5,339 nucleotides of DNA, taken from the IMG/VR virus record IMGVR_UViG_2681813269_000006; one strand, given 5' to 3'. Below, one piece after another: positions 1 through 5,339 of the stretch. The notes under the pieces were generated by a model, which did no database searches, was not told where the DNA came from, and was given only the letters and a program-made list of their open reading frames with translations. This stretch comes from a virus. Taxonomy: Duplodnaviria; Heunggongvirae; Uroviricota; Caudoviricetes. Within the stretch, counting starts at the first letter, position 1. Each line of letters begins with the position of its first letter. The position numbers and the translations under genes were made by a program.

Positions 1-1
1 A

Positions 2-370
2 GGAGTGTCCGTTAAACTCAGGCTACCTCAGTCTGCTGATTTGAGTCGCTACAGTGGCACGGTGGTTAACCGTCCGACGTTTTTTGCTTTTGCAAAAGGC
101 GCGGGTGTGATGGGGGAAGCGGGACCTGAAGCCATTCTGCCACTGCGTCGCGGTGCTGATGGTAAGCTGGGGGGTGTGGCGGATACTGGTGGTTCAGGCA
201 TGGTGATGTTTGCCCCGCAGTACAACATTGAGATCAATAACGATGGCACGAACGGGCAGATAGGTCCGGCTGCCCTGAAGGTGGTTTATGACCTCGGGAA
301 AAAAGCGGCCGCGGACTTTATGCAACAGCAGGCCCGTGATGGTGGCCGGTTAAGTGGAGCATACCGGTAA
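2..370 (+). CDS. H: Tail tape measure protein (gpH-like), C-terminal fragment; 5' end lies upstream of the window (copy 1, diverged type)
   Basis: Frame is open from the window edge to TAA at 368-370. Translation contains the tape-measure-like stretch NRPTFFAFAKGAGVMGEAGPEAILPL and the motif INNDGTNGQIGPAALK, which recurs at the end of the second H-like segment (2839..2886). The stop overlaps the ATG of the downstream M gene (TAATG), the H/M arrangement I recall for lambda. Confidence 0.8.
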   Translation, partial: GVSVKLRLPQSADLSRYSGTVVNRPTFFAFAKGAGVMGEAGPEAILPLRRGADGKLGGVADTGGSGMVMFAPQYNIEINNDGTNGQIGPAALKVVYDLGKKAAADFMQQQARDGGRLSGAYR

Positions 371-699
371 TGGAGACGTTTCACTGGAAAGTGCGCCCGG
401 ATATGAATGTGGTATCAGAGCCGAAAGTGGTGACAGTGAAGCTGGGCGATGGTTATGAACAGCGTCGTGCGGCGGGACTGAATAACCAGTTGTCGACTTA
501 CAGCGTGAAGATACGTGTTCGTAAAGGTGAACACCCATTTTTAAAAGCCTTTCTGGAACGGCACGGTGGCGTCCGCGCATTTCAGTGGACGCCACCTTAT
601 GACTGGAAGCCGATCAGGGTGGTTTGTCGTAAATGGTCGGCAAGCGTGGGGGCGTTGTGGGTAACCATAACGGCAGATTTTGAACAGGTCGTGGCATAG
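370..699 (+). CDS. M: Minor tail protein M, copy 1 (diverged homolog)
   Basis: 109-aa ORF, the same length as copy 2 (2973..3302). By my hand alignment 59 of 109 residues are identical to copy 2, including conserved blocks GDGY, TYSV, HGG, WTPPY and the C-terminal FEQVV. Position directly after the H stop matches lambda gene order. Confidence 0.85.
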   Translation: METFHWKVRPDMNVVSEPKVVTVKLGDGYEQRRAAGLNNQLSTYSVKIRVRKGEHPFLKAFLERHGGVRAFQWTPPYDWKPIRVVCRKWSASVGALWVTITADFEQVVA

Positions 700-703
700 G
701 AGG
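698..703 (+). promoter_or_regulatory. Shine-Dalgarno sequence (AGGAGG) for L copy 1
   Basis: AGGAGG lies 5 nt upstream of the ATG at 709. Copy 2 has no equivalent spacer because its M stop and L start overlap (TGATG). Confidence 0.6.
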
Positions 704-708
704 CTCTG

Positions 709-1407
709 ATGCAGGATATTCCACAGGAAACACATCATGAGACGACACGCCTCACTCAGTCAGCCCAGGTGGTGCTCTGGGAAATCGATCTGACAGAGGT
801 CGGTGGAGAACGTTATTTTTTCTGTAATGAGCAGAACGAAAAAGGTGAGCCGGTTACCTGGCAGGGGCGGCAGTATCAGGCATACCCCATTCAGGGGACG
901 GGATTTGAACTGAACGGCAAGGGCAGTGCTGCCCGTCCGACACTGACGGTTTCTAACCTGCACGGAATGGTCACCGGGATGGCGGAAGACCTGCAGAGTC
1001 TGGTCGGCGGAACGGTGGTCCGGCGTAAGGTTTACGCCCGTTTTCTGGATGCGGTGAACTTCGTCAACGGAAACAGCGACGCCGATCCGGAACAGGAGGT
1101 GATCAGCCGCTGGCGCATCGAGCAGTGCAGCGAACTGAGCGCGGTCAGTGCCTCTTTTGTGCTGGCCACACCAACGGAGACGGATGGCGCGGTTTTCCCG
1201 GGGCGTATCATGCTGGCGAATACCTGTATGTGGACTTACCGTTCTGATGAGTGTGGTTACACGGGCAGGGCAGTGGCTGACGAGTTCGACAAACCAACGA
1301 CGGATATCCGGAAGGACAAATGCAGCAAGTGTATGCGCGGGTGTGAGTTGCGCAACAATACCGGTAATTTCGGCGGTTTCCTTTCCATCAATAAACTTTC
1401 TCAGTAA
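709..1407 (+). CDS. L: Minor tail protein L, copy 1 (about 88% aa identity to copy 2)
   Basis: 232-aa ORF, the same length as copy 2. Preceded by AGGAGG at 698..703 with a 5-nt spacer. The C-terminal cysteine cluster C-x9-C-x22-C-x2-C-x3-C (codons at 1225..1344) is conserved with copy 2. About 28 substitutions and no indels relative to copy 2. Confidence 0.9.
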   Translation: MQDIPQETHHETTRLTQSAQVVLWEIDLTEVGGERYFFCNEQNEKGEPVTWQGRQYQAYPIQGTGFELNGKGSAARPTLTVSNLHGMVTGMAEDLQSLVGGTVVRRKVYARFLDAVNFVNGNSDADPEQEVISRWRIEQCSELSAVSASFVLATPTETDGAVFPGRIMLANTCMWTYRSDECGYTGRAVADEFDKPTTDIRKDKCSKCMRGCELRNNTGNFGGFLSINKLSQ

Positions 1408-1411
1408 ATCC

Positions 1412-2155
1412 ATGACACAGACAGAATCAGCGATTCTGGCGCACGCCCGGCGATGTGCGCCAGCGGAGTCGTGTGGCTTCGTGGTAAGAACGCCGGAGGG
1501 AGACAGGTATCTTCCCAGCGAGAATATCTCCGGTGAGCCGGAGGAACGGTTCCGGATGGCTCCGGAGGACTGGCTGCGGGCACAAATGCAGGGTGAGATT
1601 GTGGCGCTGGTCCACAGTCATCCCGGTGGTCTGCCCTGGCTGAGTGAGGCTGACCGGCGGCTGCAGGTGCAGAGTGATTTGCCGTGGTGGCTGGTCTGCC
1701 GGGGGACGATTCATAAGTTCCGCTGTGTGCCGCATCTCACCGGGCGGCGCTTTGAGCACGGGGTGACGGACTGTTACACGCTGTTCCGGGATGCTTATCA
1801 TCTGGCAGGGATTGAGATGCCGGATTTTCATCGCGGGGATGACTGGTGGCGTAACGGTCAGAATCTCTATCTTGACAATATGGAGGTGACGGGTTTTTAC
1901 CGTGTCGCACTGACAGAGGCACAGCCGGGCGATGTGCTGCTGTGCTGTTTTGGTTCATCGGTGCCGAATCATGCCGCCATTTACTGCGGTGACGGCGGGC
2001 TGCTGCACCATATTCCTGAACAACTGAGCAAACGAGAGAGGTACACCGACAAATGGCAGCGACGCACACACTCCCTCTGGCGTCACCGGGCATGGCGCGC
2101 ATCTGCCTTTACGGGGATTTACAACGATTTGGTCGCCGCATCGACCTTCGTGTGA
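1412..2155 (+). CDS. K: Tail assembly protein K, copy 1; N-terminal JAMM/MPN-like domain plus C-terminal NlpC/P60-like domain
   Basis: 247-aa ORF starting 4 nt after the L stop. It contains HSHPGGLPWLSEAD (H-x-H-x7-S-x2-D, a JAMM signature) with an upstream AESCGF glutamate. The C-terminal half has Cys/His candidates typical of NlpC/P60 (GVTDCYTLF, VPNHAAIY). About 20 substitutions relative to copy 2. The ORF-track start at 1148 is an upstream extension that overlaps L in another frame and is not used here. An internal in-frame ATG at 1556 corresponds to a shorter 199-aa form. Confidence 0.85.
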   Translation: MTQTESAILAHARRCAPAESCGFVVRTPEGDRYLPSENISGEPEERFRMAPEDWLRAQMQGEIVALVHSHPGGLPWLSEADRRLQVQSDLPWWLVCRGTIHKFRCVPHLTGRRFEHGVTDCYTLFRDAYHLAGIEMPDFHRGDDWWRNGQNLYLDNMEVTGFYRVALTEAQPGDVLLCCFGSSVPNHAAIYCGDGGLLHHIPEQLSKRERYTDKWQRRTHSLWRHRAWRASAFTGIYNDLVAASTFV

Positions 2156-2486
2156 AAACGGGGGCTGAAGCCATCCGGGCACTGGCCACACAGCTCCCGG
2201 CGTTTCGTCAGAAACTGAGCGACGGCTGGTATCAGGTACGGATTGCCGGGCGGGACGTCAGCACGTCCGGGTTAACGGCGCAGTTACATGAGACTCTGCC
2301 TGATGGCGCTGTGATTCATATTGTTCCCAGAGTCGCCGGGGCCAAGTCAGGTGGCGTATTCCAGATTGTCCTGGGGGCTGCCGCCATTGCCGGATCATTC
2401 TTTACCGCCGGAGCCACCCTTGCAGCATGGGGGGCAGCCATTGGGACCGGTGGTATGACCGGCATCCTGTTTTCTCTCGGTGCCAG
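1999..2486 (+). repeat. Direct repeat copy A: 488-nt block with perfect identity to 4593..5080 (3' end of K plus 5' 434 nt of I)
   Basis: Base-by-base comparison of the two copies. The last mismatch upstream is at 1998 vs 4592 (G vs A). Identity ends at 2486/5080, where copy A continues into H-like sequence and copy B continues into I. Confidence 0.85.
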
Positions 2487-2976
2487 ACTGCTTAAGCAGG
2501 CAATGGTGGGGATTGTCGGGAGTATCGGCAGCGCCATTGGCGGGGCTGTTGGTGGCGGCGCATCCGCGTCAGGCGGTACAGCCATTCAGGCCGCTGCGGC
2601 GAAATTCCATTTTGCAACCGGAGGATTCACAGGAACCGGCGGCAAATATGAGCCAGCGGGGATTGTTCACCGTGGTGAATTTGTCTTCACGAAGGAGGCA
2701 ACCAGCCGGATTGGCGTGGGGAATCTCTACCGGCTGATGCGCGGCTATGCCACCGGTGGTTATGTCGGTACACCGGGCAGTCTGGCTGACAGCCGGTCGC
2801 AGGCGTCCGGGACGTTTGAGCAGAATAACCATGTGGTGATTAACAACGACGGCACGAACGGGCAGATAGGTCCGGCTGCTCTGAAGGCGGTGTATGACAT
2901 GGCCCGCAAGGGTGCCCGTGATGAAATTCAGACACAGATGCGTGATGGTGGCCTGTTCTCCGGAGGTGGACGATGA
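2053..2976 (+). CDS. Chimeric ORF: tail assembly protein I N-terminal 144 codons fused in frame to a tape-measure (gpH-like) C-terminal 163 codons
   Basis: Nucleotides 2053..2486 are identical to 4647..5080, the 5' part of I copy 2. From 2487 the sequence leaves I and encodes RLLKQAMVGIVGSIGSAIGG...INNDGTNGQIGPAALKAVYDMARKGARDEIQTQMRDGGLFSGGGR, which parallels the H C-terminus at 2..370. It ends with a TGA overlapping the ATG of M copy 2 (ATGA at 2973..2976). Whether it is expressed or functional is unknown. Confidence 0.55.
   Translation: MAATHTLPLASPGMARICLYGDLQRFGRRIDLRVKTGAEAIRALATQLPAFRQKLSDGWYQVRIAGRDVSTSGLTAQLHETLPDGAVIHIVPRVAGAKSGGVFQIVLGAAAIAGSFFTAGATLAAWGAAIGTGGMTGILFSLGARLLKQAMVGIVGSIGSAIGGAVGGGASASGGTAIQAAAAKFHFATGGFTGTGGKYEPAGIVHRGEFVFTKEATSRIGVGNLYRLMRGYATGGYVGTPGSLADSRSQASGTFEQNNHVVINNDGTNGQIGPAALKAVYDMARKGARDEIQTQMRDGGLFSGGGR
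2962..2966 (+). promoter_or_regulatory. Shine-Dalgarno sequence (GGAGG) for M copy 2, embedded in the 3' end of the H-like coding sequence
   Basis: GGAGG lies 6 nt upstream of the ATG at 2973; it encodes the terminal SGGGR of the H-like segment. Confidence 0.55.
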
Positions 2977-3302
2977 AAACCTTCCGCTGGAAAGTGAAAC
3001 CCGGTATGGATGTGGCTTCGGCCCCTTCTGTAAGAAAGGTGCGCTTTGGTGATGGCTATTCCCAGCGAGCGCCTGCCGGGCTGAATGCCAACCTGAAAAC
3101 GTACAGCGTGACGCTTTCTGTCCCCCGTGAGGAGGCCACGGTACTGGAGTCGTTTCTGGAAGAGCACGGGGGCTGGAAATCCTTTCTGTGGACGCCGCCT
3201 TATGAGTGGCGGCAGATAAAGGTGACCTGCGCAAAATGGTCGTCGCGGGTCAGTATGCTGCGTGTTGAGTTCAGCGCAGAGTTTGAACAGGTGGTGAACT
3301 GA
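2973..3302 (+). CDS. M: Minor tail protein M, copy 2 (lambda-like)
   Basis: 109-aa ORF MKTFRWKVKPGMDVASAPSV..., which I recall as matching lambda gpM. GGAGG at 2962..2966 lies 6 nt upstream of the ATG. Its stop overlaps the L start (TGATG at 3300..3304). Confidence 0.9.
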   Translation: MKTFRWKVKPGMDVASAPSVRKVRFGDGYSQRAPAGLNANLKTYSVTLSVPREEATVLESFLEEHGGWKSFLWTPPYEWRQIKVTCAKWSSRVSMLRVEFSAEFEQVVN

Positions 3303-4000
3303 TGCAGGATATCCGGCAGGAAACACTGAATGAATGCACCCGTGCGGAGCAGTCGGCCAGCGTGGTGCTCTGGGAAATCGACCTGACAGAGGTCGGTGGA
3401 GAACGTTATTTTTTCTGTAATGAGCAGAACGAAAAAGGTGAGCCGGTCACCTGGCAGGGGCGACAGTATCAGCCGTATCCCATTCAGGGGAGCGGTTTTG
3501 AACTGAATGGCAAAGGCACCAGTACGCGCCCCACGCTGACGGTTTCTAACCTGTACGGTATGGTCACCGGGATGGCGGAAGATCTGCAGAGTCTGGTCGG
3601 CGGAACGGTGGTCCGGCGTAAGGTTTACGCCCGTTTTCTGGATGCGGTGAACTTCGTCAACGGAAACAGTTACGCCGATCCGGAGCAGGAGGTGATCAGC
3701 CGCTGGCGCATTGAGCAGTGCAGCGAACTGAGCGCGGTGAGTGCCTCCTTTGTACTGTCCACGCCGACGGAAACGGATGGCGCTGTTTTTCCGGGACGTA
3801 TCATGCTGGCCAATACCTGCACCTGGACCTATCGCGGTGACGAGTGCGGTTATAGCGGTCCGGCTGTCGCGGATGAATATGACCAGCCAACGTCCGATAT
3901 CACGAAGGATAAATGCAGCAAATGCCTGAGCGGTTGTAAGTTCCGCAATAACGTCGGCAACTTTGGCGGCTTCCTTTCCATTAACAAACTTTCGCAGTAA
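3302..4000 (+). CDS. L: Minor tail protein L, copy 2 (lambda-like); putative iron-sulfur cluster-binding tail tip protein
   Basis: 232-aa ORF MQDIRQETLNECTRAEQSASVVLWEIDL..., which I recall as matching lambda gpL. Conserved C-terminal cysteine cluster (codons 3818..3937). Confidence 0.92.
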   Translation: MQDIRQETLNECTRAEQSASVVLWEIDLTEVGGERYFFCNEQNEKGEPVTWQGRQYQPYPIQGSGFELNGKGTSTRPTLTVSNLYGMVTGMAEDLQSLVGGTVVRRKVYARFLDAVNFVNGNSYADPEQEVISRWRIEQCSELSAVSASFVLSTPTETDGAVFPGRIMLANTCTWTYRGDECGYSGPAVADEYDQPTSDITKDKCSKCLSGCKFRNNVGNFGGFLSINKLSQ

Positions 4001-4005
4001 ATCCC

Positions 4006-4749
4006 ATGACACAGACAGAATCAGCGATTCTGGCGCACGCCCGGCGATGTGCGCCAGCGGAGTCGTGCGGCTTCGTGGTAAGCACGCCGGAGGGGGAAAG
4101 ATATTTTCCCTGCGTGAATATCTCCGGTGAGCCGGAGGCGTATTTCCGTATGTCGCCGGAAGACTGGCTGCAGGCAGAAATGCAGGGTGAGATTGTGGCG
4201 CTGGTCCACAGCCACCCCGGTGGTCTGCCCTGGCTGAGTGAGGCCGACCGGCGGCTGCAGGTGCAGAGTGATTTGCCGTGGTGGCTGGTCTGCCGGGGGA
4301 CGATTCATAAGTTCCGCTGTGTGCCGCATCTCACCGGGCGGCGCTTTGAGCACGGTGTGACGGACTGTTACACACTGTTCCGGGATGCTTATCATCTGGC
4401 GGGGATTGAGATGCCGGACTTTTATCGTGAGGATGACTGGTGGCGTAACGGCCAGAATCTCTATCTGGATAATCTGGAGGCGACGGGGCTGTATCAGGTG
4501 CCGTTGTCAGCGGCACAGCCGGGCGATGTGCTGCTGTGCTGTTTTGGTTCATCAGTGCCGAATCACGCCGCAATTTACTGCGGCGACGGCGAGCTGCTGC
4601 ACCATATTCCTGAACAACTGAGCAAACGAGAGAGGTACACCGACAAATGGCAGCGACGCACACACTCCCTCTGGCGTCACCGGGCATGGCGCGCATCTGC
4701 CTTTACGGGGATTTACAACGATTTGGTCGCCGCATCGACCTTCGTGTGA
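4006..4749 (+). CDS. K: Tail assembly protein K, copy 2 (lambda-like); JAMM/MPN plus NlpC/P60 domains
   Basis: 247-aa ORF starting 5 nt after the L stop, with the same HSHPGGLPWLSEAD motif and NlpC/P60-like Cys/His as copy 1. The internal ATG at 4150 would give the 199-aa form that I recall as the database annotation for lambda K. The longer form is preferred here because it includes the AESCGF glutamate expected for a complete JAMM fold. Confidence 0.88.
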   Translation: MTQTESAILAHARRCAPAESCGFVVSTPEGERYFPCVNISGEPEAYFRMSPEDWLQAEMQGEIVALVHSHPGGLPWLSEADRRLQVQSDLPWWLVCRGTIHKFRCVPHLTGRRFEHGVTDCYTLFRDAYHLAGIEMPDFYREDDWWRNGQNLYLDNLEATGLYQVPLSAAQPGDVLLCCFGSSVPNHAAIYCGDGELLHHIPEQLSKRERYTDKWQRRTHSLWRHRAWRASAFTGIYNDLVAASTFV

Positions 4750-5080
4750 AAACGGGGGCTGAAGCCATCCGGGCACTGGCCACACAGCTCCCGGCGTTTC
4801 GTCAGAAACTGAGCGACGGCTGGTATCAGGTACGGATTGCCGGGCGGGACGTCAGCACGTCCGGGTTAACGGCGCAGTTACATGAGACTCTGCCTGATGG
4901 CGCTGTGATTCATATTGTTCCCAGAGTCGCCGGGGCCAAGTCAGGTGGCGTATTCCAGATTGTCCTGGGGGCTGCCGCCATTGCCGGATCATTCTTTACC
5001 GCCGGAGCCACCCTTGCAGCATGGGGGGCAGCCATTGGGACCGGTGGTATGACCGGCATCCTGTTTTCTCTCGGTGCCAG
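4593..5080 (+). repeat. Direct repeat copy B: perfect-identity partner of 1999..2486
   Basis: Same comparison as for copy A; offset between copies is 2594 nt. Confidence 0.85.
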
Positions 5081-5318
5081 TATGGTGCTCGGTGGTGTGG
5101 CGCAGATGCTGGCACCGAAAGCCAGAACTCCCCGTACACAGACAACGGATAACGGCAAACAGAACACCTATTTCTCCTCACTGGATAACATGGTTGCCCA
5201 GGGCAATGTTCTGCCGGTTCTGTACGGTGAAATGCGCGTGGGGTCACGCGTGGTTTCTCAGGAGATCAGCACGGCAGACGAAGGGGACGGTGGTCAGGTT
5301 GTGGTGATTGGTCGCTGA
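4647..5318 (+). CDS. I: Tail assembly protein I, copy 2 (complete); N-terminal ubiquitin-like region followed by a Gly/Ala-rich hydrophobic segment
   Basis: 223-aa ORF MAATHTLPLASPGMARICLYGDL...VVVIGR, which I recall as matching lambda gpI. Its start lies 103 nt inside the 3' end of K in a different frame, the known K/I overlap. TGA at 5316..5318 is followed by what should be the I-J intergenic region. Confidence 0.9.
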   Translation: MAATHTLPLASPGMARICLYGDLQRFGRRIDLRVKTGAEAIRALATQLPAFRQKLSDGWYQVRIAGRDVSTSGLTAQLHETLPDGAVIHIVPRVAGAKSGGVFQIVLGAAAIAGSFFTAGATLAAWGAAIGTGGMTGILFSLGASMVLGGVAQMLAPKARTPRTQTTDNGKQNTYFSSLDNMVAQGNVLPVLYGEMRVGSRVVSQEISTADEGDGGQVVVIGR

Positions 5319-5339
5319 TGCAAAATGTTTTATGTGAAA

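Follow-up and report, generated by a model that had tools for sequence, protein, structure and literature searches.

Described counterparts of the locus

Phage lambda and lambda-like Escherichia coli prophages carry the tape-measure gene H followed by M, L, K, and I, and positions 2488-5339 of the DNA analysed here (the window, meaning the whole stretch of 5,339 nt) have an identical gene content and order, except that the H gene of the window is cut at a contig end. Tandem duplications within lambda reportedly arose by illegitimate recombination in the laboratory, in work of Bellett, Busse and Baldwin in 1971 and of Emmons et al. in 1975. The window presents the picture to be expected if a segment inside lambda were repeated head to tail; however, the laboratory duplications are said to have had a physically demonstrated joint and initially identical copies, whereas the joint in the window is unsequenced and its copies come from two phage lineages.

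The left part of the window has its counterpart in a chromosomal relic of Shigella sonnei CFSAN030807 (CP023645.1, ~1.953-1.956 Mb). Window positions 1-2252 are 99.7% identical to this relic, including the terminus of an insertion sequence (IS), a 121-aa remnant of H (H'), M, L, and K. In the chromosomes the relic has an I of its own after K (its middle part ~51% identical to the window), then J and lom, whereas the left part of the window passes into a lambda-type I allele and then stops.

False scaffold joins of paralogous prophage contigs, as expected in short-read draft assemblies from pipelines of the SSPACE/GapFiller type (PMC5320598, PMC3446322), resemble the window in having an N at the join and sides that are colinear with different ordinary loci, and also in the use of one sequence on both sides, in the position of three of its four contig ends in repeats, and in a sister assembly with another such join. 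In the Sanger assembly pipeline, joins made from read pairs yield N gaps, SSPACE and GapFiller are described as tools that "can lead to false joins", and the public S. sonnei assemblies have a mean of 405 contigs (PMC5320598). GapFiller uses reads to extend both edges of a gap, which is closed only when the extensions overlap (PMC3446322).

Two sets of tail-tip genes in the window

A preliminary description of the window reported that M, L, K, and I recur, each set preceded by an H tail, and open reading frames (ORFs) are indeed present for M at 370-699 and 2973-3302, L at 709-1407 and 3302-4000, K at 1412-2155 and 4006-4749, and I from 2053 and at 4647-5318; the 3' tails of H lie at 5-370 and 2488-2976. 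The genes recur at an offset of 2593-2603 nt (2603, 2593, 2594, and 2594 nt for M, L, K, and I, respectively). Its gene identifications agree with Pfam for both sets: the members of each pair fall into one family (E-values 1e-11 to 1e-101), namely Phage_min_tail (PF05939) for M, Phage_tail_L (PF05100) for L, Prok-JAB with NLPC_P60 (PF14464 and PF00877) for K, and Lambda_tail_I (PF06805) for I, in M-L-K-I order downstream of a tape-measure gene. Both sets therefore represent a lambda-type tail-tip module (gpM, gpL, gpK, gpI). The features are as follows, with X (1-2486) and Y (2488-5339) denoting the two contigs that flank position 2487.

1-30, minus strand: terminus of an IS3-family insertion sequence, the left contig end at a repeat boundary; reverse complement TGAGGTAGCCTGAGTTTAACGGACACTCCT
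28-370, plus strand: relic tape-measure (H-like) 3' remnant, IS-truncated; 121-aa ORF called at 5-370
370-699, plus strand: M, relic allele, contig X (PF05939, E-value 6e-39)
709-1407, plus strand: L, relic allele, contig X (PF05100, E-value 8e-97)
1412-2155, plus strand: K, relic allele, contig X (Prok-JAB and NLPC_P60)
1999-2219, plus strand: 221-nt stretch over the K 3' end and I start, identical in the relic, X, and Y in a three-way comparison; X changes allele here
2053-2486, plus strand: I, first 434 nt, lambda-type allele, right end of X; exact duplicate of 4647-5080
2487, no strand: scaffold gap, N in CXNR01000256.1 and A in the window
2488-2976, plus strand: lambda-type tape-measure gene H, last 489 nt, left end of Y; corresponds to lambda 12615-13103
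2973-3302, plus strand: M, lambda-type allele, contig Y (PF05939, E-value 8e-40; 99.2% DNA identity to lambda)
3302-4000, plus strand: L, lambda-type allele, contig Y (PF05100)
4006-4749, plus strand: K, lambda-type allele, contig Y (Prok-JAB and NLPC_P60)
4647-5318, plus strand: I, complete, lambda-type allele, contig Y (PF06805)
5289-5339, plus strand: right contig end, a 51-nt run identical in the relic and lambda-type I-J regions

The identity between the two copies climbs from left to right, from 60% (nucleotide) and 36% (amino acid) in the H tail, through 60% and 54% in M, 84.5% and 88% in L, and 93% and 92% in K, to 100% over codons 1-144 of I; the likeness of the two gene sets is far beyond chance. 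Positions 1999-2486 equal 4593-5080 without a single difference (488 nt), against a divergence of 7-40% in M, L, and K. An exact repeat of this length beside such divergence fits one physical I allele that was used twice.

The base at position 2487 and the contigs on either side

Sequence comparison identified CXNR01000256.1 (GCA_001256515.1; 5,339 bp), a complete draft record, as the same sequence as the window with a sole mismatch at position 2487, where the record has N and the window has A. This A agrees with neither lambda H nor I, both of which have T there. Because 2487 is N in the source record, the supposed I::H junction at 2486/2487 is a scaffold gap of one N between contigs X and Y, without any sequence reading across it, and neither flank runs into the other. 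What the preliminary description saw as a tandem duplication is consequently confirmed as a repeat pattern in the text of the sequence, but not as physical contiguity of the copies. The in-frame I::H ORF of 307 aa arises from the substitution of A for N at 2487; in the public record itself, a 274-aa CDS is called across the N. The sequences flanking the joint are ...GAAATT|CTGCTT in lambda H and ...GTGCCAG|TATGG in I; microhomology-mediated recombination was rejected, as the H and I flanks have no sequence in common, and the discovery of the N left the question without object. If the join is false, I would continue 3' of 2486 as TATGGTGCTC..., and the H sequence on the 5' side of 2488 would be ...GACAGAAATT.

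Contig X is not one diverged copy of the module: the relic allele extends to 1998, positions 1999-2219 are common to all three sequences, and 2220-2486 match the I allele of copy 2 exactly. At its left end, positions 1-30 occur five times in a 20.7-kb S. sonnei-type locus (L003), in which 1-35 occur once and HTH_Tnp_1/rve transposase ORFs adjoin the site of the IS terminus; E. coli H genes match the window only from position 28 on. The H-like remnant shares 95% identity with the tape-measure gene of E. coli MIN11 at its 3' end, and the same 121-aa ORF adjoins the IS in S. sonnei-type chromosomes. The exact relic M protein occurs in ~2,290 assembly blocks (always single-copy in the contexts listed) and the exact relic L protein in ~2,350 blocks, mainly contigs of 5-10 kb and S. 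sonnei-type chromosomes; the exact protein of the relic K allele in the window occurs in only four draft contigs, the window's own record among them. The lambda-type part of I in X is identical at 136 of 267 positions to the relic I that lies 3' of K in two sister assemblies (L024 and L026). On its right, X ends within an exact run of 24 nt (5061-5084) common to both I alleles.

Contig Y is an ordinary lambda-like H(3')-M-L-K-I segment that matches lambda 12615-15465 (NC_001416) at 99.2% identity, with 22 substitutions and one extra base near window position 4140; DNA comparison at this identity upholds the earlier proposal of lambda as the parent of 2973-5318. Its H part is 99-100% identical to the H genes of lambda and of E. 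coli prophages, with all matches beginning exactly at 2488. The exact lambda-type L protein is found in ~15,000 blocks (among the contexts listed, always single-copy and with a full-length H upstream), the exact K protein in ~9,900 blocks in single-copy context, and the I protein is identical in seven of eight lambda-like loci. K and L of copy 2 are very common alleles, and tracing of the lambda-like element through sister assemblies by means of them gave only large unrelated chromosomes.

According to an exact-run analysis, repeats are present at three of the four contig ends, namely the IS terminus, the 24-nt I-allele run, and the 51-nt run. The start of Y is the exception: no repeat or mosaic boundary was found at this point (lambda 12615), and a natural mosaic boundary between H alleles was rejected, as eight lambda-like loci and lambda are 98-100% alike on both sides of 12615.

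Explanations for the repeat

The I-to-H joint was found in none of 5,426 complete E. coli genomes at a coverage of at least 80%, and when window positions 2250-2750 were compared by BLAST with E. coli genomes, phages, and plasmids, no place covered both halves. An exact 40-mer and a degenerate 23-mer of the joint had no matches in GTDB representative genomes, IMG/VR, or JGI metagenomes, and the I::H fusion protein is not on record. Places that appeared "88% covered" in whole-window BLAST were dismissed as single-copy loci matched by both halves of the query (spans of ~2,852 bp in the records), and not tandem. Contiguous relatives are single-copy at 20 chromosomal relic places and 18 lambda-like places (38/38 among the matches listed) and in all phage records; X is colinear with the relic and Y with a lambda-like prophage, two distinct ordinary loci, and the same joint was seen in no independent or related genome of the collections searched. 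Among sister drafts, L023 has a single-N join of its own at its position 4072 with other breakpoints; its second block opens precisely with base 1 of the 221-nt stretch, a graph-node boundary, and its I gene is unbroken through the equivalent of window position 2486. L024 and L026 carry a plain single-copy relic, and in 10 complete S. sonnei-type chromosomes the relic continues through I-J-lom without a lambda-type neighbour.

We conclude with high confidence that the apparent tandem duplication consists of two paralogous prophage contigs serially joined by a scaffolder, and is not biology. The earlier suggestion of a mis-assembly of two co-resident lambdoid prophages was right as to an artefact, but the artefact is a scaffolder join of paralogous contigs and not a collapse. 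The source is a short-read draft assembly in many fragments, and the strain is most likely of S. sonnei type, with an old lambdoid relic truncated by an IS (H'-M-L-K-I-J-lom) and, probably, a lambda-like prophage as well. X and Y would be parallel, paralogous renderings of the tail-tip region, which a read-pair scaffolder would have set in series, keeping one N where the ends never overlapped; the N, shown as A, closes the spurious I::H ORF. X itself is ambiguous, as it passes through the 221-nt stretch of both modules and then through lambda-type I sequence that is also in Y. A join of this kind requires read-pair links between X and Y. The analysis shows the N, what each block is and where it normally lies, the repeated use of the exact 488 nt, the lack of the joint in other sequences, and how the sister assemblies behave; we infer both the joining software, a pipeline of the SSPACE/GapFiller type, and the reason for the join.

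It is improbable that one prophage holds a genuine tandem duplication or an unequal recombinant (...H'-M-L-K-I(5')::H(3')-M-L-K-I-J), with its joint in or around the N and the left copy partly replaced by relic sequence. In favour of this reading, the scaffolder did link X to Y and estimated the gap at about zero (a single N), and the start of Y otherwise has no explanation; with such a duplication a de Bruijn graph would branch exactly at nt 434 of I and at H 12615, and lambda duplications by illegitimate recombination are reportedly known from the laboratory. Yet a unique novel joint would receive read coverage and be assembled or gap-filled instead of being left as N, and this one is absent from all databases searched. 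Sisters that share the K allele show either the relic in single copy (L024 and L026) or an intact I and a different N-join (L023), and the 488-nt block of 100% identity beside 7-40% divergence would require an additional recent conversion. The claim that the virion could draw on two tail-tip sets from a genuine, diverged tandem duplication is not supported: the joint is N, it is absent in all collections searched, and the contiguous relatives are single-copy. There is likewise little probability that the link made by the scaffolder reflects a true adjacency, in which a Shigella/E. coli isolate would carry a hybrid prophage remnant with two non-identical tail-tip modules, M-L-K of relic type and M-L-K-I of lambda type, placed head to tail by illegitimate or unequal recombination of two lambdoid elements and with the joint hidden at the N.

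The chance is slimmer still that X and Y are true chromosomal neighbours brought together by an IS-mediated rearrangement of two remnants, with an unassembled repeat such as an IS of ~1 kb hidden behind the N. Copies of IS1 and of IS3-family elements crowd the surroundings of the relic in the host-type chromosome, and the left end of the window is an IS boundary, but unlike that end neither the right end of X nor the left end of Y has IS terminal sequence; the single N denotes an estimated gap of at most one base, compared with the ~1 kb needed, and the 10 complete chromosomes noted above carry relic I-J-lom with no such neighbour. An engineered or cloned construct, for example of lambda fragments joined at an AflII site (CTTAAG, 2491-2496, lambda 12618), has a negligible probability: the site is only 4 nt away from the joint, on its right, but it is native to lambda and the joint is off the cut position. 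The left block, moreover, is a relic of the chromosome with a flanking IS, and no plasmid matched. The record is a whole-genome shotgun draft contig with N at the joint, which effectively refutes a construct.

A true duplication would be of modest interest as a curiosity, the counterpart in nature of the laboratory tandem duplications of lambda, in the setting of a degraded, IS-truncated relic incapable of making virions anyway. The main value of the finding is in quality control: an N silently rendered as A made a scaffold gap look like a recombination joint and a 307-aa fusion protein. When draft assemblies are scanned, N positions should be kept or masked, and a short contig with diverged tandem repeats of prophage modules should raise the suspicion of a scaffolding error.

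Tail-tip gene sets and their divergence

The preliminary description had proposed a tandem, diverged duplication of the lambda-type tail-tip module (H tail, M, L, K, I) and had noted that a mis-assembly of two co-resident lambdoid prophages would look alike. As a property of the string the repeat was upheld: two gene sets lie head to tail, far beyond chance, with start-to-start offsets for M, L, K, and I of 2603, 2593, 2594, and 2594 nt, respectively. Identity between the copies increases from left to right along the module.

Tail-tip genes of the window (copy 1 and copy 2), with identity between the copies
H 3' tail: 5-370 and 2488-2976; 60% nt, 36% aa
M: 370-699 and 2973-3302; Pfam Phage_min_tail in both copies; 60% nt, 54% aa
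L: 709-1407 and 3302-4000; Pfam Phage_tail_L in both copies; 84.5% nt, 88% aa
K: 1412-2155 and 4006-4749; Pfam Prok-JAB+NLPC_P60 in both copies; 93% nt, 92% aa
I: from 2053 and 4647-5318; Pfam Lambda_tail_I in both copies; 100% nt, 100% aa over the first 144 codons

The joint at position 2487

Copy 1 closes with 488 nt (1999-2486) that recur at 4593-5080 without a single mismatch. The I reading frame ends at 2486 and is followed by a single orphan base, with lambda H starting at 2488 (from lambda nt 12615); no microhomology was found at this I::H joint. Base 2487, an A in the window, agrees with neither parent (lambda H or I), and the frame is preserved over it to give a 307-aa ORF, I(1-144)::H(C-terminal 163 aa). 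When the copy-1 K protein was looked up by exact match, four draft contigs were found, one of them 5,339 bp long and with the same gene layout (NCBI GCA_001256515.1, CXNR01000256.1). Compared base by base, the window and this record differ solely at 2487, which is A in the window and N in the record; the window is therefore the complete draft scaffold, in which contig X (1-2486, carrying copy 1) and contig Y (2488-5339, carrying copy 2) are set across a one-N gap. No sequence was ever read across the I::H "junction", and the in-frame 307-aa ORF owes its existence solely to the display of that N as A. A 274-aa CDS (2152-2976) annotated in the record itself likewise crosses the N.

Thus, a sequenced novel joint, the defining feature of a tandem duplication, is absent from the window. 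Among complete genomes of E. coli (5,426 searched), no place spanned the joint, and no phage or plasmid record did so either; exact and degenerate joint patterns had no match in GTDB representative genomes, IMG/VR, or JGI metagenomes, and the I::H fusion protein is not on record. An AflII site (CTTAAG, 2491-2496), 4 nt from the start of contig Y, prompted consideration of an engineered construct, which was rejected; the site is lambda's own (lambda 12618), and its proximity to the joint was dismissed as coincidence.

Origins of the two contigs

The copy-1 M and L proteins have exact matches in ~2,300 assembly blocks, mostly 5-10 kb contigs, with some IS-rich chromosomes of ~4.8 Mb; one chromosome carrying them, CP023645.1, is that of Shigella sonnei CFSAN030807 (PMC11594029). 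The locus in those chromosomes is a lambdoid prophage relic comprising an IS3-family IS, a truncated H', and M-L-K-I-J-lom, each in single copy. The IS cuts the relic tape-measure gene short (window 28-370), leaving a 121-aa ORF. Window 1-2252 is 99.7% identical to the relic locus, including the first 30 nt, which (minus strand) are the IS terminus (reverse complement TGAGGTAGCCTGAGTTTAACGGACACTCCT). This terminus occurs five times in a 20.7-kb example locus, so the left end of the window is of the kind typical of short-read contigs. This IS-truncated relic of S. sonnei type, a known element, makes up the left block.

Contig Y is 99.2% identical to lambda 12615-15465. The copy-2 K and L proteins occur in ~9,900 and ~15,000 blocks, respectively, and all 18 places shown for them are ordinary prophages with one H (~853 aa)-M-L-K-I-J set; the right block represents an unexceptional segment of a lambda-like prophage. 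The reference lambda record (NC_001416 / J02459) is one base short at ~14267 relative to the window (~4140, in copy-2 K) and to other lambda records. The missing base falls just upstream of the annotated 199-aa K start; in the window and the ~9,900 assembly blocks K is read as 247 aa, comprising an N-terminal Prok-JAB domain and NlpC/P60.

Copy 1 is also a composite. In a three-way comparison the window follows the relic as far as 1998; over 1999-2219 (221 nt, the K 3' end and I start) the relic, copy 1, and copy 2 (4593-4813) are all identical; and over 2220-2486 the window matches the lambda-type I allele perfectly, where the relic's own I is only ~51% identical. The two I alleles, ~51% identical in the middle, reach 95% again over 5061-5339. 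The right end of contig X falls inside the equivalent of 5061-5084, the only 24-nt exact run in which the two alleles re-converge, and the right end of the window lies in a 51-nt run common to both. The identical 221-nt stretch, followed by a divergent I middle and then renewed similarity, forms a sharp, natural mosaic joint among lambdoid tail genes, which is also where the lineage's assemblies disagree.

Among the four draft assemblies with the copy-1 K allele, two (L024 and L026) run from K into relic I (267/267), whereas a third (L023) and the window run into lambda-type I; such differing connections over the 221-nt repeat are the behavior of an unresolved repeat. Exact re-use of 488 nt beside 7-40% divergence is expected where a single physical I allele has ended up in both contigs, and is unlike two diverged physical copies.

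Scaffolding and alternative explanations

The sister draft L023 (GCA_900159865.1, FUBD01000174.1) has a false "duplication" of its own, in which relic H'-M-L-K leads into lambda-type I and the 5' part of J, and a single N (4072) is then followed by the 3' end of K and by relic I and J; the stretch from lambda-type I onward lies at 2219-4830. Its second block starts exactly at base 1 of the 221-nt shared stretch, a graph-node boundary, and its I gene continues unbroken past the equivalent of window 2486 (247/259 identity to the remainder of I). This suggests that scaffolding errors are recurrent at this prophage pair in the lineage's assemblies.

Tandem duplications of lambda are known from the laboratory. 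A real one here would branch the graph exactly where X ends and Y starts (I nt 434 and H 12615); the link between X and Y was, moreover, made by a scaffolder. However, a unique joint is normally assembled or gap-filled, and a genuine duplication with its joint concealed at the N, against which the sister assemblies and all databases speak, is very improbable. Concealment of an IS in the gap between X and Y is very unlikely, given that IS terminal sequence is missing from both inner ends and that a single N means an estimated gap of about zero.

As the source of the join in CXNR01000256.1, we infer the Sanger high-throughput pipeline (Velvet, SSPACE, GapFiller), in which read pairs join contigs and N gaps are put in; its authors caution that these tools, being greedy, "can lead to false joins". 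Public S. sonnei assemblies from it have a mean of 405 contigs (PMC5320598). GapFiller uses reads to lengthen both gap edges one base per step, and closure requires an overlap of at least 10 nt between extensions and a fit to the estimated gap size (PMC3446322). Here, the edges may have been extended until the estimated space was consumed, never overlapping, with a minimal N left. Such extension would account for the re-use of lambda-type I reads in the tail of X, the start of Y at a site in H with nothing else to mark it out, and the mismatch between the two ends. The apparent tandem duplication is judged to be a scaffolding artefact, disguised as a joint by an N-to-A substitution, and not a real biological feature; the genes themselves are ordinary ones of the lambda tail-tip module.
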